From NCBI GenBank assembly GCA_028376655.1, contig JAONAZ010000002.1:69029-133028 (forward strand): 64,000 nt of DNA, read 5' to 3'. Source of the DNA: Acidimicrobiia bacterium (GTDB lineage: Bacteria > Actinomycetota > Acidimicrobiia > Actinomarinales > Actinomarinaceae). Of the stretch, positions 2,765 through 28,591 are shown piece by piece (the stretch's first letter is position 1; each line of letters opens with the position of its first letter). The notes under the pieces are model-generated. The model did not search any database. It saw only the letters and a program-made list of their open reading frames with translations, and was not told the origin of the DNA. A program made the translations under genes and the position numbers.

Positions 2765-3844
2765 ATGAATTTTAAAATAGCAGTTATTATTGGAGGTCCT
2801 TCTCCTGAACACGATATATCTATTTTGACTGGTCTTCAAAGTGCCAGAGTCTTATCAGTTAAAAACGATGTATCAATTATTTACTGGACGAAGGACAATA
2901 ACTGGTATCTACTTGATTCTGATCTAGAATCTACTGATTTCATAGAAAATTCAATAAACTTTTCTAAAGAATTACATTTATCTTTAGGAAAAGATAATTG
3001 TTTTCTCTACAAAAGAAAAAAAATAGAGTTTGATATTTTTGTTAATTCTTGTCACGGTGGTCCAGGCGAAGATGGAAGCCTTCAAGGACTATTAGAAATA
3101 ATGGATGTTAAATATACTGGTCCAAACCTACAAACTGCCCAACTTTGTATGGATAAATATGCTTTTTATTCACTTATGAAAACAAATAATCTACCTGTTT
3201 TAGATAAATTTAGAATTCAAAAAAATGTTACACCAAACTTTAAGGGTCCTTATGTATTGAAACCACAATTTGGGGGTTCATCTATTGGAGTCGAGCTCGT
3301 AGAAGATTACGAAACAGCTCTTAAAATATCAGAATCATCAGATCTTTATGAAAGGGGTGCACTATTAGAGCAGTATCTTGAAAATGCAGATGATTTATTA
3401 ATTGGTGTAAGAAATTATCCAGAGTTTAATTTTTCAGAAATAGAAAAACCAATCAGAAATTCAAATCTTTTTTCATACGAGGAAAAATATCTTAACAATG
3501 GAGGGCTAGAAGGTTCTAAAAGAGAACTTCCAGCAGTATTATCCGAAAAGATTTGTAACAATATATATTCCTATATAGAAAAAATTAATAAGATCATACC
3601 TTCTCGTGGAATAGTTCGTTATGATTTCTTAAAAATTGAAGACGAAGTTTATATAAATGAAATAAATACTATTCCTGGTAGCCATGCACTTTATCTTTGG
3701 AAGAATTTGAATATTTCTAAGTATGATTTATTACATAATATGGTCCTAGAGGGATTAAACGAAAAGTCTAATCAGTGGAGTATTCAAGGTTCTGATGGTA
3801 TGGCTTTAAGAAGTGCTAAAGATATCAATTCTAAGCTCGGGTAA
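2765..3844 (+). CDS. ddl: D-alanine--D-alanine ligase
   Basis: ATP-grasp fold. Motif CHGGPGEDGSLQGLLE, then LKPQFGGSSIGV and C-terminal YINEINTIPG. 359 aa. Confidence 0.9.
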   Translation: MNFKIAVIIGGPSPEHDISILTGLQSARVLSVKNDVSIIYWTKDNNWYLLDSDLESTDFIENSINFSKELHLSLGKDNCFLYKRKKIEFDIFVNSCHGGPGEDGSLQGLLEIMDVKYTGPNLQTAQLCMDKYAFYSLMKTNNLPVLDKFRIQKNVTPNFKGPYVLKPQFGGSSIGVELVEDYETALKISESSDLYERGALLEQYLENADDLLIGVRNYPEFNFSEIEKPIRNSNLFSYEEKYLNNGGLEGSKRELPAVLSEKICNNIYSYIEKINKIIPSRGIVRYDFLKIEDEVYINEINTIPGSHALYLWKNLNISKYDLLHNMVLEGLNEKSNQWSIQGSDGMALRSAKDINSKLG

Positions 3845-3845
3845 A

Positions 3846-4484
3846 ATGACGGGAATATATTGGGATTGTGACGGCACTCTTATGGATACCGAAAAGGCTT
3901 ATGCGTATGCATGGAAAGATGTTCTAAAAAAAAGAAATCTTAATTTACCCATTGAAAAGTTTGATGATTATGTAGGTATAGATGACAAATTAGTCCACAA
4001 AAAATATTCTGAACAAGTTGACCTTCCCTCATTTAGTGAAACTATGGATGAAATAGCAGCACTAATTATTGAAAACTTTTCAGATCATACAATTTTTAAT
4101 GATGCCTTAGTATGTTTGGAATATTTACAAGATTTAAACTGGAAACAGGCTTGTGTTTCCGCATCACCACAACAAGCATTAGAAGATAAACTTAAAAAAG
4201 CTGATATTTCAGATTATTTTGATTTTGTAGTTGGAGGTGACAAAGTGCGTCCTAGAAATAAACCATTTCCAGATATTTATAATTTAGCAATTAAAGAATT
4301 GAAAACTACAAATAATATTATCGTAGAAGACAGTCCTCCAGGAATTCAAGCTGGTAAAGCATCAAACAATTTTGTTGTTGCTATCGATAGGGGAGTTTTT
4401 ACTGGCAAAGATCTCTCAAATGCAGATCTTATAGTTGATGAACTTACTCCTAAAATCTTTATTGATATAAACAAAAGCCTTTAA
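3846..4484 (+). CDS. HAD-superfamily hydrolase (beta-phosphoglucomutase/phosphatase subfamily IA)
   Basis: Motif I is WDCDGTLMDTE; motif IV region is VEDSPPGIQAG. I prefer the ATG at 3846 (MTGIYWDCDG), 1 nt after the ddl stop, over the ORF-track start at 3813. Confidence 0.8.
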   Translation: MTGIYWDCDGTLMDTEKAYAYAWKDVLKKRNLNLPIEKFDDYVGIDDKLVHKKYSEQVDLPSFSETMDEIAALIIENFSDHTIFNDALVCLEYLQDLNWKQACVSASPQQALEDKLKKADISDYFDFVVGGDKVRPRNKPFPDIYNLAIKELKTTNNIIVEDSPPGIQAGKASNNFVVAIDRGVFTGKDLSNADLIVDELTPKIFIDINKSL

Positions 4485-20305: not shown

Positions 20306-20704
20306 ATGGCTGTAAAAATTAGATTAGCTCAAAGAGGTAAGAAAAAAACACGTACCTATAGGGTCGTTGTAGCTGATGCGAGATCACCTCGTGATGGTAA
20401 GTTCATCGAAGATCTAGGATTTTATAACCCTCATGATAATCCTTCAACAGTAGACATTAATGTTGAAAAGGCTGTGTCATGGCTTGATAAAGGAGCTCAA
20501 CCATCTGAACGAGCACAAAAACTTCTAGAAATCTCCGGTGCATGGGCACAGTGGAGATCTACTAAAGGTGAAGTTGTTTCAATTCCCAATGCACCTGAAG
20601 CAAAAGTAAAAAGTAGTTCAAAAGCTAACAATAAAAAGATTGAAGCAGAAGCATCAGTCGAAGATGAAAAATCTGAAAATCAAGAAGGAAGTGAAGAAGA
20701 ATAA
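20306..20704 (+). CDS. rpsP: 30S ribosomal protein S16 (with Lys/Glu-rich C-terminal extension)
   Basis: MAVKIRLAQRGKKKTRTYRVVVADARSPRDGKFIE. SD AAGGA lies upstream. Confidence 0.95.
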   Translation: MAVKIRLAQRGKKKTRTYRVVVADARSPRDGKFIEDLGFYNPHDNPSTVDINVEKAVSWLDKGAQPSERAQKLLEISGAWAQWRSTKGEVVSIPNAPEAKVKSSSKANNKKIEAEASVEDEKSENQEGSEEE

Positions 20705-20958
20705 TGTCGGAATCAGGAAATATTGTTAAAAACGTTGTCGAATACATTGTCACTCAGATTGTTGAGAATGAAGATGAAGTAAAAGTAGACGTAGCATCAT
20801 TAACAGATGACAAAGTAGCTATTGAAGTAAGAACATCATCAAATGATATGGGAAGAGTTATTGGTAAAAGAGGTCGAGTTGCTAGAGCAATTAGAACTGT
20901 CGCACAAGCCGCTGCAGATGAAGAAGGCCTTGATTCATCAGTAGAATTTATTGACTAA
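20704..20958 (+). CDS. KH-domain RNA-binding protein (YlqC/UPF0109 family)
   Basis: GRVIGKRGRVARAIR (GxxG KH motif). Conserved position between rpsP and rimM. Confidence 0.85.
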   Translation: MSESGNIVKNVVEYIVTQIVENEDEVKVDVASLTDDKVAIEVRTSSNDMGRVIGKRGRVARAIRTVAQAAADEEGLDSSVEFID

Positions 20959-21427
20959 TAAAACACTATTCTTACTAGGTCAACTCGGAAAACCCCATGC
21001 ACTGAATGGATATTTATATCTTAATCAGGAAATTTATTTTAGAAATTTTGATCTTACAGATTTAAATGTTGTTGTAGATAGTTCAGAATTTAAAATTGAA
21101 AAGTTTAAAACTCATCTTAAAAATCGATATCTCGTTAAATTCCATAAATTAGATTCAATATCATCTATAGAAAAGTTCAGAGGAAAAGATGTTTATGTAT
21201 CCTTAACACAAATAGATAATTTCATTTCAGACAACCTTCCTTGGCCCGGTTTTTTTATTTCCTCAATTTTAAATGAAAAATACCATGTCAAAAACTTTTT
21301 TTATGCTGGTGAATTAATGTTTCTTACTATTTTTGCTACTGAAGAATATACAATTCCATTTAATTCAAACTTTTTTAAATATGAAAATGGTAATTTAGAG
21401 ATTATTAACTTTGATCTATTCCAATAA
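20951..21427 (+). CDS. rimM: 16S rRNA processing protein RimM
   Basis: LGQLGKPHALNGYLYL N-terminus and a PRC-barrel-like C-terminus. TTG start overlapping the KH gene. Synteny supports the call. Confidence 0.8.
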   Translation: MTNKTLFLLGQLGKPHALNGYLYLNQEIYFRNFDLTDLNVVVDSSEFKIEKFKTHLKNRYLVKFHKLDSISSIEKFRGKDVYVSLTQIDNFISDNLPWPGFFISSILNEKYHVKNFFYAGELMFLTIFATEEYTIPFNSNFFKYENGNLEIINFDLFQ

Positions 21428-22120
21428 CCAAGTTATCAAATCGTTACTTATTTCATCATTGAGTAAATTTTCCGGATGCCATTGAATACCTAATGCTTCC
21501 CATGTTGAAGTACTTTCTATTCCCTCTATAAGATTATCATCCGACATAGCATTAACCTTTAATTCATTACCAATAGTATTTATTACTTGATGGTGGATAC
21601 TGTTAACATCAACAGTTAATTTGCTTGTTGCTTTACTTAATACCGTATTCTCAAATATATTTATCTTGTGTACATGTTTATATGCGAAATCATCTAATTG
21701 CATGTGGTCAATATCTGTATTTATATTTGTTTCAATATCCTGATGCAAAGTGCCACCTTTATAAACATTTAATAATTGATGACCCCTGCAGATACCGAGT
21801 GTTTTTATAGAGTTCTTTTCAGCTATTTCAAGAAGATTAAGTTCTGTATTGTCTCGTTCATCTGAAATTCTTTCACTTTTTTCATCTACTTCAGCATTGT
21901 ATCTAATTGGATTTATGTCACCACCACCTGATATTATCAATCTATCAAAATTTGGATTACTAAAATGAATATTTAATGATTGGGGTGGTATGACTATAGC
22001 CTCTGCACCGTGTTTGTTACATAGTTCAATAAAGGCCATATTTAATACTGAACAAGGTATTTCTCCAGGAGCAAGACGAGCATTTTCAATACCTCCGGAA
22101 ATGGCGATTAACTTAGTCAT
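21416..22120 (-). CDS. class-I glutamine amidotransferase-like peptidase C26 (gamma-glutamyl-GABA hydrolase family)
   Basis: GICRGHQLLNV (nucleophile Cys), SIHHQ, QWHPE. 234 aa. Confidence 0.8.
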   Translation of the reverse strand: MTKLIAISGGIENARLAPGEIPCSVLNMAFIELCNKHGAEAIVIPPQSLNIHFSNPNFDRLIISGGGDINPIRYNAEVDEKSERISDERDNTELNLLEIAEKNSIKTLGICRGHQLLNVYKGGTLHQDIETNINTDIDHMQLDDFAYKHVHKINIFENTVLSKATSKLTVDVNSIHHQVINTIGNELKVNAMSDDNLIEGIESTSTWEALGIQWHPENLLNDEISNDLITWLLE

Positions 22121-22526
22121 TTAACATAAAAATTGTTTGAACCTCTACACAGACATTTAGAGGCAGACTTGTTACACCAACTGCTGATCTTGTTGATTTC
22201 TCAGTAAAGAATTCTGATAATTTATCAGTAAAACCATTCAACACACCAGCGTGATCTGTAAAGGTCGGTTCAGAATTTACAAATCCTACTACATTAACCG
22301 GTGTTATTTTTGACAAATCATAATTAACATTTAGTGTTGAAAGAGTTAATTCAGCACATAATTCCGCAGCTTTATAAGCTGCATCGACAGAAACTTCGGA
22401 TGGAACCTTACCCGTAATCTTAATATCTCCATTAATTGGTATGTGTCCAGATGTATATATTAAGTTTCCAGCTTGTTTAATAGTTATATAATTTCCAACA
22501 GCTTGAGGTGGTTCTGGGAACATCAT
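22113..22526 (-). CDS. RidA/YjgF-family reactive-intermediate deaminase
   Basis: PQAVGNYI...LIYTSGHIP, SRSAVGV..LPLNVCVEV. 137 aa. Confidence 0.8.
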   Translation of the reverse strand: MMFPEPPQAVGNYITIKQAGNLIYTSGHIPINGDIKITGKVPSEVSVDAAYKAAELCAELTLSTLNVNYDLSKITPVNVVGFVNSEPTFTDHAGVLNGFTDKLSEFFTEKSTRSAVGVTSLPLNVCVEVQTIFMLND

Positions 22527-23531
22527 CTATTTCTTAGTGCTTAATTTGTTAACTAAATCTACAACTCTGTTTGAGTAACCCCATTCATTGTCGTACCAAC
22601 ATACAACTTTAATATGATTTCCATCTAGTAATTGAGTTGATGAGGCATCGTAAATACTTGAGTGAGGATTTCGTAATATGTCCGTCGAGACTAGTGGTAC
22701 GGAAGAATATTCTAATATTCCTTTTAAATCATTATTTGCTGCAAATTTTACAGCTTCGTTAATTTCTTCAATAGTCACTTGTGTGTTTAATTCAACCACT
22801 AAATCTATAACACTCCCATTCGGTACAGGTACCCTCATAGCCATACCATCAAGCTTTCCCTTTAATTCAGGTAAAACCATTCCTACAGCCTTCGCTGCAC
22901 CCGTAGAAGTTGGGATGATATTTTGTGTAGCACTTCTTCCTCTTCTGAAATCTTTATGAGTAGTTTCTGCAAGTGCTTGATCATTTGTGTAAGCATGAAT
23001 AGTTGTCATTAAACCTGATTTTATACCAAAGTTGTCATTTAGAACTTTTGCAATGGGAGCTAAGCAATTAGTTGTACAGGATGCATTAGAAATTAATTTC
23101 GAGTCATCAGTAATGTCTTCATCATTGACGCCTAGGACTACAGTTGCATCAATTTCATCTTTAGGAGGAACTGTTAAAACCACTCTTTGTGCGCCTGCAT
23201 TGAGGTGCATTTCTAGTGATTTTCTATCAGAAAATATTCCTGTAGACTCAATAACAATATCTATATCCATCTCTTTCCAGGGAAGATCAGCAGGATTAGC
23301 TACCGATACTAATTTTATTTCCCTATCATCAATTTTAAGAATATTTCCATCCAGCTTCACATTGTTGTCTAATACACCCATAACTGAATCGTGTTTTAGT
23401 AGATAAGCAAGGTTTTCGTAATTACCAAGGTCATTTATAGCAATTACATTTAGGTCAGAACTGCTTTCTATTATGATTCTAAGAATTGATCTGCCTATTC
23501 TCCCAAATCCATTTATTGCAATATTACTCAT
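22527..23531 (-). CDS. gap: type I glyceraldehyde-3-phosphate dehydrogenase (catalytically complete)
   Basis: INGFGRIGR, active site SNASCTTNCLAP, TTIHAYTNDQ, TSTGAAKAV, MRVPVP, WYDNEWGYS. Confidence 0.95.
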   Translation of the reverse strand: MSNIAINGFGRIGRSILRIIIESSSDLNVIAINDLGNYENLAYLLKHDSVMGVLDNNVKLDGNILKIDDREIKLVSVANPADLPWKEMDIDIVIESTGIFSDRKSLEMHLNAGAQRVVLTVPPKDEIDATVVLGVNDEDITDDSKLISNASCTTNCLAPIAKVLNDNFGIKSGLMTTIHAYTNDQALAETTHKDFRRGRSATQNIIPTSTGAAKAVGMVLPELKGKLDGMAMRVPVPNGSVIDLVVELNTQVTIEEINEAVKFAANNDLKGILEYSSVPLVSTDILRNPHSSIYDASSTQLLDGNHIKVVCWYDNEWGYSNRVVDLVNKLSTKK

Positions 23532-24537
23532 CTACACTCTTTTCTGAAAGTTTGTTTATTGTATCAATAATGCGAGCGCTATAACCCCAGCCATTGTCGA
23601 ACCAGATTAATAGTTTTATTTTGTTATTATCAATTCCCATGGTTGCTAACCCATCAATAATTCCCGAATGAGAATTACCAACTACATCAGAAGACACTAT
23701 GGGATCAAAGGTAATATCAAGAACTTTATTATATGGTAGGTTTTTTGTAGCTTGGATAATCGAATTATTAATCTCATCAACTGTTGCTTCTTTTGTTATA
23801 TCAATTGTTAAATCTACAGTACTTCCATCAGGAACTGGCACTGTCATTGAAGATGAAGCAATTTTATCCTTCATGAACGGTAGTACGGTTTCAATTACAC
23901 TAGATGATTTTGTAATTCCAGGGATTATATTTTCACCAGCAGCTCTATTTAACCTAAAACCTTCACCAGCTACATCAGCTAATCTATTTGAATTGGAATA
24001 TCCATGAATAGTTGTTAAAAATGCTCTTTTTACTCCGAAATCTTCATTAAGTATCTTTATTAAGGGTGCAACTGCATTCGCAGTATTAGAACCAAGAGAT
24101 ATGATATTGTTTGAAAAATCAACTTTAGAATCATTTGCACCTGGGACGTAGATTTGTATATTACTTCCAACTTGAGGAGTACTAGCTATTAAAACTTTTT
24201 TTGCTCCATTGTTTACATGTTCTTCAACTTCGTTAATGTCTTGCTGTCTACCAGTTGAAATAATTAAAATATCTGTATCCAATTCACTCCAGGAAGATTC
24301 AGAGGCATCTTTCCAACTGTTAAAAATTATATTTTTACCATTAATTTTGAATCCATTATCTGTAACTTCTATATCCGCATCAAGTTTTCCATATATTGTG
24401 TCATATTTAAGCAGATACAAAAGATTTTCTTTATCTGCAATATCAGATATAGATACTATGTTTATCAATTCATTATTCAATGTTTGTCTTAATAGGTCTC
24501 GACCTATTCTTCCAAATCCGAAAATTGAAATATTCAT
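23524..24537 (-). CDS. GAPDH-like paralog lacking the catalytic cysteine (probable pseudoenzyme or neofunctionalised)
   Basis: FGFGRIGRDL, TTIHGYS and WFDNGWGYS are retained. SCTTNC is replaced by SNTANA (AAT codon at 24087-24085), TSTGAAK by GITKSSS, and MRVPVP by MTVPVP. 8-nt overlap with gap. Confidence 0.85.
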   Translation of the reverse strand: MNISIFGFGRIGRDLLRQTLNNELINIVSISDIADKENLLYLLKYDTIYGKLDADIEVTDNGFKINGKNIIFNSWKDASESSWSELDTDILIISTGRQQDINEVEEHVNNGAKKVLIASTPQVGSNIQIYVPGANDSKVDFSNNIISLGSNTANAVAPLIKILNEDFGVKRAFLTTIHGYSNSNRLADVAGEGFRLNRAAGENIIPGITKSSSVIETVLPFMKDKIASSSMTVPVPDGSTVDLTIDITKEATVDEINNSIIQATKNLPYNKVLDITFDPIVSSDVVGNSHSGIIDGLATMGIDNNKIKLLIWFDNGWGYSARIIDTINKLSEKSVDE

Positions 24538-24573
24538 ATTATCCTCTTATATTCAAAACACAATGATAAAGGA

Positions 24574-24601
24574 TTGACTAAGTAAATTGTTCAAATAATA
24601 T
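24574..24601 (+). promoter_or_regulatory. candidate sigma70-type promoter for cofG-cofH-trmD-rplS
   Basis: TTGACT (24574-24579), 16-nt spacer, TAATAT (24596-24601). Lies 30 nt upstream of the cofG GTG. Confidence 0.4.
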
Positions 24602-24631
24602 TAATTATTTGTTAACTCTAAAATATGTATT

Positions 24632-25741
24632 GTGAATAACAAAAAATTTATAAATGAATCATTATTTGGCAGTCGTACAACCCATGACTTGACATCCCAA
24701 GCTTTTGAAATCAAAAAAAACAATTTTGGTAGTAACATAACTTATAGTCCAAAAGTATTTATACCCCTTACAACATTATGTCAAGACTCTTGTGCATATT
24801 GTACATTCGTAAAATCACCCAATGAAGGTGGAACATATTTGAATATGCAAGAAGTTGAATCTATTGCATTAGTAGGCGAAGCTTCAGGTTGCTTTGAAGC
24901 TTTATTTACACTTGGAGATAAACCAGAACTTAAATGGAAATTTGCCCTACAAGAACTGAATAATTTTGGTTATTCCTCTACTCATGAATATCTAACAGCA
25001 AATATGAAAAATATTCATGAAAATTATAATATCTTCCCTCATGCAAATCCCGGGTTAATGACTTCTGATGAAATTAGTGAATATAGGAAATATTCTCCAT
25101 CAGGAGGATTAATGTTAGAAAGCTTTTCTCCACAATTATTAGAACAGGGTAGAGCTCACTACAAGGCAAAAACAAAAAGAATTGAATTAAGAATTGAGAC
25201 GTTAAATCAAGCAGAAATTTTCAGGTATCCCATGACAACAGGATTATTGATTGGCATTACAGAAACAAAGGAAGAATTAATAAATGACATTATCGAATTA
25301 GTAAAAATATGTAAAGCAAATTCATCAATTCAGGAAATAATTTTGCAAAATTTTAGGGCAAAAATGAATACTCTTATGAGAAATAATGCTGAAGTCACAA
25401 ATGACCTATTCTTACGAATTATTGCTACAGTTCGAATACTTCTTCCAAATCATATATCCCTTCAGGTACCCCCGAATCTTTTATCTGATGTCGCTATTTA
25501 CTTAACTAGTGGTATCAATGATTTTGGGGGGATTTCACCAAAAACTATTGATTGGGTTAATCCTGATCATCTGTGGCCAGACATAAAAAACTTAGAAGAG
25601 TCAGTATTAAATACAGGACAATCCTTAAAGAAAAGACTTCCTGTGTATCCAAACTTTATAAATAATGAATGGTTAAGTCCACTAGTTTTTGAAAAAGTTA
25701 GTAATGTAATTGATAGTGATGGATACCCTAGAAATGAATAA
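24632..25741 (+). CDS. cofG: 7,8-didemethyl-8-hydroxy-5-deazariboflavin (FO) synthase subunit CofG
   Basis: Radical SAM CQDSCAYCTF with FIPLT just upstream. 369 aa. Directly followed by cofH. Confidence 0.85.
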   Translation: MNNKKFINESLFGSRTTHDLTSQAFEIKKNNFGSNITYSPKVFIPLTTLCQDSCAYCTFVKSPNEGGTYLNMQEVESIALVGEASGCFEALFTLGDKPELKWKFALQELNNFGYSSTHEYLTANMKNIHENYNIFPHANPGLMTSDEISEYRKYSPSGGLMLESFSPQLLEQGRAHYKAKTKRIELRIETLNQAEIFRYPMTTGLLIGITETKEELINDIIELVKICKANSSIQEIILQNFRAKMNTLMRNNAEVTNDLFLRIIATVRILLPNHISLQVPPNLLSDVAIYLTSGINDFGGISPKTIDWVNPDHLWPDIKNLEESVLNTGQSLKKRLPVYPNFINNEWLSPLVFEKVSNVIDSDGYPRNE

Positions 25742-27587
25742 CATTAAAAATATTTCTTATTTAAGAATTCGCCCTTGTGATAGTGATAATGAAATTTACC
25801 TTAGTTCTAGATTAAAAGAAGGTACTTCATCATTTACAGTAAAGCCAGATTTGCCCATAAATTATGAAACATTATTAATAAATGGATTCCAAACTATATC
25901 TACAGATTTAACGGAAAAGTCTTCTGTATGGTTTGTTACTGACGATGAGATTGATATTACAATAACACATAGTTCTAAACGGTTAATTTATAGATATAAA
26001 AATAATAAAGAGAATGCTTTAGAAGTCATATCAAGATATAAGCCCTCTGTAATTCTTATTGAAAATCTAGAGGATATTGATTTTTTAGCTAATCTCCACG
26101 GAGTTAATAAATTTATTATTTCTATGTATGTTAATTCAATTGAAGATGCCATAGAGGCAGTTGAAAGTGGGGTTGATGATCTTTTCCTGAGAGACTGGAG
26201 TAAAGATCAAATTTTAGAATTACAAACAACAATGGTCTACCCAATTTATGAAAGAACTTTATTATCACCAGCCTTCTCTGTAAATCAGGCTCGAAGTGTA
26301 TTGGATAAATTAGAGTTTACAAACTTTTTACAAACTAGAAATGTACGTGGATACAAAAGAGAACATACTGATTGGTTTCCTGGCAGCGGTAAAGATATAC
26401 CTAATTTATTCAATTTTACATCTGAATCATTATCAGATTACAAAACTCATAATTTTGATAAAATTTTAGATAACTTTTCTAAAACTCAGAATATTTCAGA
26501 GCAAGATCTCTTGGAACTTTTTAAAACGTCTGGAAAATATATCAACCAAGTAGCCGAATTAGCAGGTGAATTAACTAAGAAAATACACGGAAATAGGGTA
26601 ACTTTTGTAAAGAATCGTAATATTAACTATACAAACCAATGTTATTACAAATGTGGATTCTGTGGTTTTTCTAAAGGACCCAGAAGCCTAGATCTCAAAG
26701 AGAAACCTTACATTTTGACACCTGAAGAAGTTGTTCAAAGAACAATTGAAGCACACGATATTGGAGCATCAGAAGTATGTCTTCAAGGTGGAATACACCC
26801 AAGCTATACAGGAGATTTTTATTTGGACTTAGTTAAAAAAATTAAAAACGTTCTGCCTGATATGCATATTCATGGATTTACACCTTTAGAAATATGGCAA
26901 GGTGCAAGTACTGTAAATAAATCAGTTGAAGTTTATCTCACGGAATTAAAAGAAGCGGGGTTAGGAACTTTACCAGGCACAGCAGCCGAAATATTAGACG
27001 ACAGAATAAGAAAATATTTATGCGATGATAAGATAACTTCTTCCCAATGGGCTTATGTAATGGAAATTGCACATTCTATAGGTATTAAGTCAACTGCCAC
27101 AATTATGTTTGGTCATATTGACGACCTAGACTCCTGGGTCAATCATTTTAAATTGATAAAAGACATTCAAATTAAAACCGGAGGTTTTACAGAGGTTGTG
27201 CCATTACCTTTTGTTCATATGGGTTCTCCCATTTTTCTTCAAGGAAAAAGTATGCCGGGTCCTACTTGGGATGAAATAGTATTAATGCATGCATTAGCAA
27301 GGATATACTTTTTTAACACCATAGACAATATCCAAGCAAGTTGGGTAAAACTTGGTCACGACGGAGCTAAAGTGCTTTTAAGGTCAGGAGTTAATGACTT
27401 AGGCGGCACACTTATAAATGAAAATATAAGTCGTGCATCGGGAGCAGATCATGGCCAAGAAACAACTGACACAGAATTTATACATCTAATTAAAAGTGCC
27501 CAAAAAACTCCATACTTAAGAAATACTTTGTATACATCTTTTAAAAATCTTGAAGATGTAAGTGTTGAAAATGTTATCAAAATATAA
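25710..27587 (+). CDS. cofH: FO synthase subunit CofH with an extra N-terminal domain of about 240 aa
   Basis: The C-terminal 380 aa or so has NINYTNQCYYKCGFCGF (radical SAM), CLQGGIHP and GVNDLGGTL. The N-terminal 240 aa has no CxxxCxxC. The start is ambiguous (25710, 25719 or 25734). Confidence 0.85.
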   Translation: MIVMDTLEMNNIKNISYLRIRPCDSDNEIYLSSRLKEGTSSFTVKPDLPINYETLLINGFQTISTDLTEKSSVWFVTDDEIDITITHSSKRLIYRYKNNKENALEVISRYKPSVILIENLEDIDFLANLHGVNKFIISMYVNSIEDAIEAVESGVDDLFLRDWSKDQILELQTTMVYPIYERTLLSPAFSVNQARSVLDKLEFTNFLQTRNVRGYKREHTDWFPGSGKDIPNLFNFTSESLSDYKTHNFDKILDNFSKTQNISEQDLLELFKTSGKYINQVAELAGELTKKIHGNRVTFVKNRNINYTNQCYYKCGFCGFSKGPRSLDLKEKPYILTPEEVVQRTIEAHDIGASEVCLQGGIHPSYTGDFYLDLVKKIKNVLPDMHIHGFTPLEIWQGASTVNKSVEVYLTELKEAGLGTLPGTAAEILDDRIRKYLCDDKITSSQWAYVMEIAHSIGIKSTATIMFGHIDDLDSWVNHFKLIKDIQIKTGGFTEVVPLPFVHMGSPIFLQGKSMPGPTWDEIVLMHALARIYFFNTIDNIQASWVKLGHDGAKVLLRSGVNDLGGTLINENISRASGADHGQETTDTEFIHLIKSAQKTPYLRNTLYTSFKNLEDVSVENVIKI

Positions 27588-28209
27588 TGTAATAACCTTA
27601 TTCCCAAATCTAATCGAAGAGTGGTTAGCTACTGGAATAATTTCGAAGGCCTATAAAAACAATCTCTACGAAATCTCAATTACAAATTTGCGTGATTATG
27701 GATTAGGAGAATATAAACAAGTAGATGATGCTCCCTATGGGGGAGGTCCTGGGATGGTTTTAATGGCTGAACCTTTGGATAATGCCATAACCTCTAATAA
27801 GTCTGACATAAATGTATTTCTTACACCTTCTGGAAATCAATTAGATGAAAGTTTAATATCAGAATTGCATACACATCAGTCGGCAAATTTGATATGCGGA
27901 AGATATGAAGGATTTGATCAGCGAATTATAGATTTACATTCTGATTACCAAATTTCGATTGGAAAAACTGTAGTTTCTGGTGGAGAGATTCCTGCATTAT
28001 TCACACTTGAAGCACTCATAAGAAAAATTCCTGGAGCATTAGGAAATTCTGAATCGTTACTTACAGAATCATTTACAGATGGTAAATATGATCACCCTGT
28101 ATATACGCGTCCTGAAAAATATAAAGAATTATCTGTACCATCTGTGCTACTTTCAGGAAACCATCAAAAAATAATTGACTGGAAAAAGAATAATTTAAAA
28201 GACATATAA
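27571..28209 (+). CDS. trmD: tRNA (guanine37-N1)-methyltransferase TrmD
   Basis: VITLFPN, DDAPYGGGPGMVL, CGRYEGFDQR, SGGEIPA. The ATG at 27571 lies inside the cofH 3' end (17-nt overlap). Confidence 0.9.
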   Translation: MLSKYNVITLFPNLIEEWLATGIISKAYKNNLYEISITNLRDYGLGEYKQVDDAPYGGGPGMVLMAEPLDNAITSNKSDINVFLTPSGNQLDESLISELHTHQSANLICGRYEGFDQRIIDLHSDYQISIGKTVVSGGEIPALFTLEALIRKIPGALGNSESLLTESFTDGKYDHPVYTRPEKYKELSVPSVLLSGNHQKIIDWKKNNLKDI

Positions 28210-28246
28210 TCCAAAATTACTTATATAATCTTCATTTGGAGAAGAT

Positions 28247-28591
28247 ATGAACTTAATTGAAGAAATAGAAAAATCAAAATTAAAAGAAGAGCTACCTTCT
28301 TACAAAGCTGGTGATTCCGTTAAGGTTAATGTTAAGGTATCAGAAGGTAATCGCGAGAGAATCCAAACATTTGAAGGTGTTATCATTGCTACAAATGGTG
28401 TTGCTCTTAATAAAAGCATTACTGTCCGTAAATTGTCTTTTGGTGTTGGAGTTGAAAGAATATTTCCTGTCCACGCTCCTATTGTTGACTCAATTGAAGT
28501 CACAAGAAAAGGTAAAGTACGTAGATCAAAACTTTATTACCTAAGAGATAGAGTTGGAAAATCAGCAAAAATTAAAGAAGATCGTTCTTAA
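28247..28591 (+). CDS. rplS: 50S ribosomal protein L19
   Basis: [26 protein letters not shown]...[23 protein letters not shown] lies upstream. Confidence 0.95.

Follow-up and report, generated by a model that had tools for sequence, protein, structure and literature searches.

Why is a gene with the glyceraldehyde-3-phosphate dehydrogenase (GAPDH) fold, whose product has lost the catalytic cysteine, maintained directly upstream of a canonical gap gene? The question is raised by a 64,000 nucleotide (nt) stretch of DNA from an Acidimicrobiia bacterium of the Actinomarinales (assembly GCA_028376655.1, contig JAONAZ010000002.1, forward-strand positions 69,029–133,028), which is referred to here as the window and whose own numbering is used throughout. 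The gene is termed gapX and its protein GapX; the adjacent canonical gene and protein are termed gap and Gap. Close homologs of the window proteins carry the name Candidatus Actinomarina. Few enzymes have been studied as thoroughly as GAPDH, and the bacterial enzyme is regarded as a homotetramer. The answer proposed here, to which about an even chance is given, is that GapX is a non-catalytic partner subunit: it would bind NAD(H), be translated together with Gap and join it in one assembly.

The active site of GapX and its conservation

GapX and Gap both display the Gp_dh_N and Gp_dh_C domains of Pfam, which score 86.2 and 133.8 bits in GapX. Gap passes the cut-off of 367.2 bits for type I GAPDH (TIGR01534) with 433.5 bits, whereas GapX fails it with 284.2 bits. 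GapX reaches 203 bits against the Epd model TIGR01532, where the cut-off is 530, and no model in the NCBIfam profile search claims the GapX family. Alignment with the B. stearothermophilus GAPDH structures (1gd1/1nq5) extends over the full length of the protein with 38% identity (E-value of ~1e-75 to 1e-74), and this identity to solved GAPDHs settles the fold. The identity with the neighboring Gap is 39%.

Both alignments are without gaps near the active site, and the GapX segment SNTANA faces SCTTNC. Cys149 is replaced by Asn and Cys153 by Ala (codon 24075–24073). Further changes are Leu for Arg195 (codon 23952–23950), Thr for Arg231 (codon 23844–23842) and Gly for Glu314 (codon 23592–23590). 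The inorganic phosphate (Pi) loop has GITKSSS instead of TSTGAAK, i.e. Gly209-Ala-Ala-Lys has become Lys-Ser-Ser-Ser; Ser148, Thr150 and Thr208 of the Pi site are retained and Gly209 is lost. His176 is retained (TTIHGYS, codon 24006–24004), and the NAD-site residues GxGxxG, Arg10, Asp32, Thr96 and Asn313 are all conserved, as is the S-loop. An earlier note, made from the sequence alone, had pointed out the substitutions of Cys149, Cys153, Arg231 and the TSTGAAK segment together with the retention of the NAD-binding motif and His176; the gap-free alignments and the codons show these to be real. An alignment shift that would restore a catalytic Cys was considered and rejected, as none of 80 orthologs brings a Cys to this position. 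Lacking a thiol nucleophile and both arginines that bind the substrate phosphate, the window protein is predicted to be incapable of acting as a GAPDH. GapX thus appears catalytically dead, at least in Acidimicrobiia.

The ortholog set consists of 80 species-level genomes, i.e. metagenome-assembled genomes (MAGs) and single-amplified genomes (SAGs) of Actinomarinales plus 26 Acidimicrobiia from outside that order. The gapX frame is intact in 79 of these, and G-S-N-T is found at the catalytic position in all 80, including the 26 non-Actinomarinales sequences at 41–45% identity. Asn149 is present in each of the 84 Acidimicrobiia sequences examined. The median ratio of nonsynonymous to synonymous substitution rates (dN/dS), computed on 129 shared species pairs with unsaturated dS, is 0.095 for GapX, compared with 0.053 for Gap and 0.101 and 0.131 for the products of the two genes that follow gap, Rid and C26, respectively. 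The earlier note had proposed dN/dS as a check, and the values confirm purifying selection on gapX; its description of an intact and maintained gene also stands, the single frameshift being in a single-cell assembly. That frameshift is near residue 250 of the gapX of single-cell genome AG-917-O09 (locus L051, 6001–6991, on a contig shared with locus L256). It is the only disrupted ortholog of the 80 and may be either a sequencing error or real decay.

The GapX family and its linkage to gap

A search of 1.84 billion proteins returned about 20 GAPDH-like proteins lacking Cys149 among the best 150 representatives. Most of these group with GapX on a neighbor-joining tree, apart from the canonical GAPDHs, which include the Acidimicrobiia Gap clade. 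An X-type gene is located directly upstream of a same-strand canonical gap in Thermoanaerobaculia, Holophagales, Desulfobacterales and Bdellovibrionales, and the same arrangement is found in loci of Eisenbacteria, Planctomycetota, Marinimicrobia and Lentisphaeria. Two scans at the DNA level for W-[FY]-D-N-G-W-G, the family signature, gave at least 119 and at least 120 stretches and add bins of Krumholzibacteriia, Fibrobacteraceae, Myxococcota and Gammaproteobacteria. The carriers also include Acidimicrobiia and Acidobacteriota, and at least ten named lineage groups are represented overall. At least 165 unique GapX-Gap pairs were found in the first three scans. A later scan shows at least 106 further tandem loci (106 of the 119 loci listed), which were not de-duplicated against the 165 pairs. 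Among the listed hits of two DNA-pattern scans there is no cultured isolate, all being MAGs, SAGs or Candidatus bins. The only listed hit with a RefSeq accession, from Candidatus Nitrotoga sp. M5 (L308), has no GAPDH-like open reading frame and was discarded as a chance match.

GapX belongs to an old and separate clade of GAPDH paralogs that spans many phyla, mostly in large GC-rich genomes. The picture given in the earlier note, in which a tandem copy arose locally and its Cys was then lost within a streamlined genome, is not borne out.

In all pairs found gapX is upstream of gap. X-type open reading frames without a downstream gap are all at the end of a contig or locus or beside a truncated gap, with the single exception of L233. 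The spacing between the gapX stop codon and the gap start codon is −4 nt in 48 loci, −8 in 26, 0 in 19, −1 in 13 and +1 to +3 in ten, which accounts for 116 of 121 loci; two more tandem loci, at +9 and +26 nt, bring the number to 118. Stop and start overlap or abut in ~96% of the loci, in GC-poor and in GC-rich, non-compact genomes alike. This linkage and apparent translational coupling to a canonical gap across phyla give strong indirect support to the idea of a hetero-oligomer partner. Pfam analysis of the flanks of two loci from outside the Actinomarinales, L061 and L111, shows unrelated genes with no pgk or tpiA, and only the gapX-gap pair is conserved.

The L233 locus (8 kb) has an X-type gene at 2957–3937 of the minus strand with the sequence SNGSCTAHC, Asn231 and Gly314, and no canonical gap. 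Cys149 is kept, and this may be a solitary, possibly still catalytic member of the family.

gapX is co-transcribed with gap. Contigs of marine metatranscriptome assemblies cover gapX, and single RNA contigs bridge the gapX/gap junction in three runs; these contigs are strandless and some DNA carry-over is possible. The contig depth is 0 at positions 24566–24706, just upstream of gapX, in four out of four metatranscriptomes. The rid and C26 genes are probably co-transcribed with gap as well, one RNA contig bridging all three. In metatranscriptome X4 a depth spike of ~190, loose at either end, is seen at 22874–23014, the conserved SCTTNC region of gap. Its probable source is gap transcripts of other organisms that are more abundant and cross-map here.

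The residues kept and lost in the family were analyzed by a site comparison on 115 pairs and a weighted profile on 165 pairs. In the 165 GapX sequences residue 149 is Asn (88), Cys (28), Ser (25), Phe (9), Ala (5), Pro (4), Ile (3), Val (2) or Leu (1). Residue 231 is Asn in 100, Thr in 53, Asp in six and another residue in six, and is Arg in none. Gly replaces Glu314 in 161 of the 165; a bulky or polar residue nearly always replaces Gly209, as does a hydrophobic residue Asn6. The Pi-loop segment reads K/N-S-S/P-x across the Acidimicrobiia. Arg195 is lost in all Acidimicrobiia and is kept in 28 of the 37 members from outside this class that are in the site table. The earlier note had suggested a survey of the Asn variant. 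Asn is found in all Acidimicrobiia sequences examined, but some lineages keep Cys149, and the family-wide hallmark is the loss of Arg231 and not that of Cys149.

The profile shows 48 GapX positions that are at least 93% conserved across phyla. In the NAD site the family has retained Arg10, Asp32, Thr96, Asn313 and the glycine-rich loop. Ser148, Thr150, His176, Thr179 (Thr or Ser) and Thr208 are retained too, together with Arg194, Arg197, VPV, the PxVSxD motif and NIIP, which ends the S-loop. No stretch of GapX is more conserved than this end of the S-loop; in established structures the S-loop forms the core of the GAPDH tetramer. His176 is present without exception in Actinomarinales (52 of 52 sequences) and in almost the whole family. 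A subclade of Acidimicrobiia (L102 1667–2791, L123 3498–4544 and L132 3045–4106; also P0214) has Lys in place of His176 (TVVKAMSN). Together with Asn149 this means that both members of the catalytic dyad are lost there.

By Fitch parsimony on the neighbor-joining tree rooted with Gap, Cys is the root state of residue 149 and at least 25 changes have occurred, a count that is approximate as the tree is distance-based and has no bootstraps. All 84 Acidimicrobiia sequences fall into a single clade with Asn, which re-arose in a few Acidobacteriota. Repeated loss of Cys149 is clear from close relatives that differ at this residue. A Phe149 clade, mainly of Candidatus Multivorans (Acidobacteriota), comprises L169, L171, L175, L188, L190, L214, L227, L245 and L255. 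In this clade a residue that is bulky and hydrophobic occupies the former active site, and the two members in which residue 231 was read (L169 and L245) have Asp there. Selection acts on the domain that binds the nucleotide, on the motifs of the tetramer core and on a pocket that is partly kept, and not on the nucleophile. Catalysis is unlikely to be the selected trait, because Arg231 is replaced in all pairs and residue 149 is so variable.

Possible roles of GapX

As a partner subunit, GapX would share an mRNA with the housekeeping Gap and be produced in roughly equal amounts, would keep the ability to bind NAD(H), and would co-assemble with Gap into a mixed tetramer. It would act there as a structural or regulatory subunit, with a presumed effect on the activity, stability or regulation of Gap. 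This is the most economical reading because of the selection pattern, the obligate linkage and the start/stop coupling to gap. Several points weigh against it. The GapX-Gap complex is a prediction from genes and sequences. The retained oligomer motifs are just as compatible with a homotetramer of GapX. Ser148, Thr150, His176 and Thr208 are conserved family-wide and Asn149 is invariant in Acidimicrobiia down to 41% identity; the pocket therefore seems to be still under selection, and an inert scaffold would not need one. Lineages that keep Cys149, His176 and Arg195 could have active enzymes. Tight gene coupling is common also between enzymes that do not bind each other, and the partner Gap looks canonical throughout, with nothing to suggest that it needs a helper.

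Of the rival explanations, a decaying pseudogene that arose by tandem duplication of gap has a probability next to nil. Lost catalytic residues and the frameshifted L051 ortholog would fit it, but it is ruled out by the intact frames, the dN/dS value and the cross-phylum conservation; in addition the gene is transcribed, and the family clade is separate from the local Gap. The conserved pocket can also be read as that of a free-standing new enzyme, which would use NAD(H), His176 and Ser148/Thr150/Thr208, together with Asn149 in Acidimicrobiia or Cys in some other lineages, on a substrate without C3-phosphate contacts and would work beside Gap in central metabolism, unbound. This is judged unlikely, but well short of negligible. 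It is favored by the conservation of the NAD-site and pocket residues across the family, by the invariance of Asn149 in Acidimicrobiia, by the members that keep Cys149 (28 of 165) or Arg195 and by a Pi loop that is remodelled and not deleted; furthermore, some clades of the GAPDH-like superfamily are still active without the Cys, according to a review (PMC12041015). Yet close relatives have unrelated residues at position 149, and a single conserved chemistry is hard to reconcile with such chemical variety. Moreover, no pathway gene other than gap is co-conserved in the L061 and L111 flanks, and an independent enzyme leaves the ~96% start/stop coupling unexplained.

A third alternative is that GapX is a non-enzymatic sensor or regulator outside of the Gap tetramer, e.g. 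for NAD(H)- or phosphate-ligand-responsive control of gap or of another target. Its position is similar to that of the repressor CggR, which is encoded upstream of gapA in Bacillus: in every gap transcription unit that includes it, gapX comes first. The nucleotide-binding fold and the pocket are retained, and GAPDH proteins are known to moonlight in nucleic-acid binding. However, the coupling implies that GapX is synthesized in about the same molar amount as a very abundant enzyme, which would be out of the ordinary for a regulator, Pfam shows no added DNA- or RNA-binding domain, and the oligomer-core motifs are the most conserved parts of the protein. The sensor or regulator is considered improbable. 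The subunit reading can also be carried further. The family may represent a phylum-spanning regulatory subunit of GAPDH that senses redox state or metabolites through its retained NAD(H)/phosphate pocket and gates the activity or the oxidation sensitivity of Gap in the mixed tetramer or, alternatively, a thiol-independent neo-enzyme on the GAPDH active site. This broader proposal is speculative and is given a low probability.

Compared with type I GAPDH (GapA, EC 1.2.1.12; 1GD1), GapX shares the fold, both Gp_dh domains, the NAD site, His176, Ser148, Thr150, Thr208 and the S-loop. It differs by the absence of Cys149, of Arg195 (in Acidimicrobiia), of Arg231 (in the whole family), of Gly209-Ala-Ala-Lys and of Glu314. 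GapX also forms its own clade, is paired with a true GapA and falls below the equivalog cut-off. The chloroplast A2B2 GAPDH (PDB 2pkq, 7q53), in which the paralogs GapA and GapB form one hetero-tetramer, has the architecture that is proposed for GapX-Gap. However, both plant subunits are catalytic and ~80% identical, and regulation is via a C-terminal extension, whereas GapX appears dead, is far less similar to its partner, and its mixed assembly is a prediction. In the prozymes of trypanosomatid deoxyhypusine synthase and S-adenosylmethionine decarboxylase, a selected dead paralog forms a heteromer with the active paralog and modulates its activity (PMC3663545). GapX likewise is a paralog that has lost catalytic residues and is under purifying selection. 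The prozymes differ in that folds and organisms are unrelated, the proof is biochemical and the catalytic partner is impaired; Gap looks fully competent, and a GapX-Gap heteromer is a prediction. Epd/GapB of E. coli (erythrose-4-phosphate dehydrogenase) is another bacterial paralog of GAPDH in which the phosphate site is remodelled and the function has changed, but it keeps Cys149 and is an active enzyme.

A full-text search of the literature turned up no account of a GAPDH paralog that lacks the Cys and is coupled to gap, which may be explained by the fact that all listed carriers are uncultured. In public databases the proteins are named "type I glyceraldehyde-3-phosphate dehydrogenase", "GAPDH NAD-binding domain-containing protein" or "hypothetical"; where gapX genes carry the name of type I GAPDH, gap copy numbers are therefore inflated in metabolic reconstructions. 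The family represents either a pseudoenzyme or a neo-functional branch of GAPDH with a fixed genomic partnership. A conserved, co-translated and apparently dead paralog in at least ten lineage groups points to an unrecognized layer of GAPDH subunit composition or regulation. The step affected is a key point of glycolysis and gluconeogenesis, and the carriers include some of the most abundant marine heterotrophs. If the proposal is correct, this step would depart from the textbook homotetramer in the abundant ocean Actinomarina and Marinimicrobia and in soil Acidobacteriota.

The gene block and its genomic setting

The features of the gene block are collected in Table 1. The four genes and the 8-nt overlap of gapX and gap had been outlined in the earlier note, and agreement was found at every coordinate checked. 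A Shine-Dalgarno-like AAGAGGA is located 5 nt ahead of the gapX ATG. At the other end of the block the rid and C26 genes overlap by 8 nt, and the 3′ ends of the C26 gene (minus strand) and the convergent rimM (plus strand) overlap by 12 nt (21416–21427). A scan of the region for promoters and terminators gave counts equal to the shuffled expectation in AT-rich DNA and is uninformative.

Table 1. Positions of the gapX-gap gene block, its junctions and the catalytic-site codon in the window
Feature	Position	Strand	Description	Basis
gapX	23524–24537	−	GAPDH-fold paralog, 337 aa (amino acids), Asn at the Cys149 position	open reading frame call, profiles, alignments, codons
gap	22527–23531	−	canonical type I GAPDH, 334 aa, with SCTTNC, His176, Arg195, TSTGAAK and Arg231	
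rid	22113–22526	−	Rid-family (YjgF/L-PSP) protein, 137 aa; start abuts the gap stop	
C26 gene	21416–22120	−	Peptidase_C26 / class-I glutamine-amidotransferase-like gamma-glutamyl hydrolase, 234 aa	
Overlap of gapX stop (TAA) and gap start (ATG)	23524–23531	−	8 nt, ATGAGTAA; putative translational-coupling junction	
Codon at the catalytic Cys149 position of gapX	24085–24087	−	AAT (Asn)	alignment and codon read-out
Intergenic region	24538–24631	−	94 nt, between gapX and a divergent radical-SAM (CofG-like) gene	

The third gene of the block was described in the earlier note as a RidA deaminase. Its product matches Ribonuc_L-PSP of Pfam (43.9 bits, cut-off 27.3) and has the conserved Arg of the Rid family (TRSAVG), which aligns with the Arg of ARAAVG in 3d01 and PA0814; these two and ACIAD3089 are the closest structures. 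With TIGR00004, however, the score is 42.4 against a cut-off of 106.25, so that the protein is not a RidA equivalog. It appears to be a member of the Rid family and not an archetypal RidA. The assignment of the fourth gene as gamma-glutamyl hydrolase-like is supported by a PF07722 match of 168 bits and by an intact triad of Cys (ICRG), His and Glu (WHPE). This triad aligns with those of Lin1909 and the amidotransferase-like protein 7d4r, and PuuD (6vtv) is a weaker match.

The rid and C26 genes follow gap in 51 of 54 Actinomarinales loci, and in the remaining three the contig stops before that point. No other Acidimicrobiia locus has them behind gap, nor were they seen in the annotated outside loci L061 and L111. 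By their dN/dS values both genes evolve under purifying selection. The window has ~32% GC and is 95.6% coding, and 34 of 56 neighboring open reading frames on the same strand are at most 3 nt apart. As tight packing is the norm in this genome, the adjacency of rid and C26 is weak evidence of a shared function or pathway. The "unusual functional grouping" of the earlier note thus holds in so far as the Rid/C26 linkage is conserved in Actinomarinales, but it is confined to these and the packing is tight genome-wide.

The block is located within the rpsP-khpA-rimM...trmD-rplS cluster, which is usually contiguous and is split in the window (20306–28591). The C26-rid-gap-gapX block, in inverted orientation, and two CofG/CofH-type (F420 FO-synthase) radical-SAM genes separate rimM (20951–21427) from trmD (27562–28209). 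The first ~300 residues of the CofH-like open reading frame (25710–27587, 625 aa) have no Pfam match at E ≤ 1e-5, and its Radical_SAM and CofH_C domains are confined to residues 305–610.

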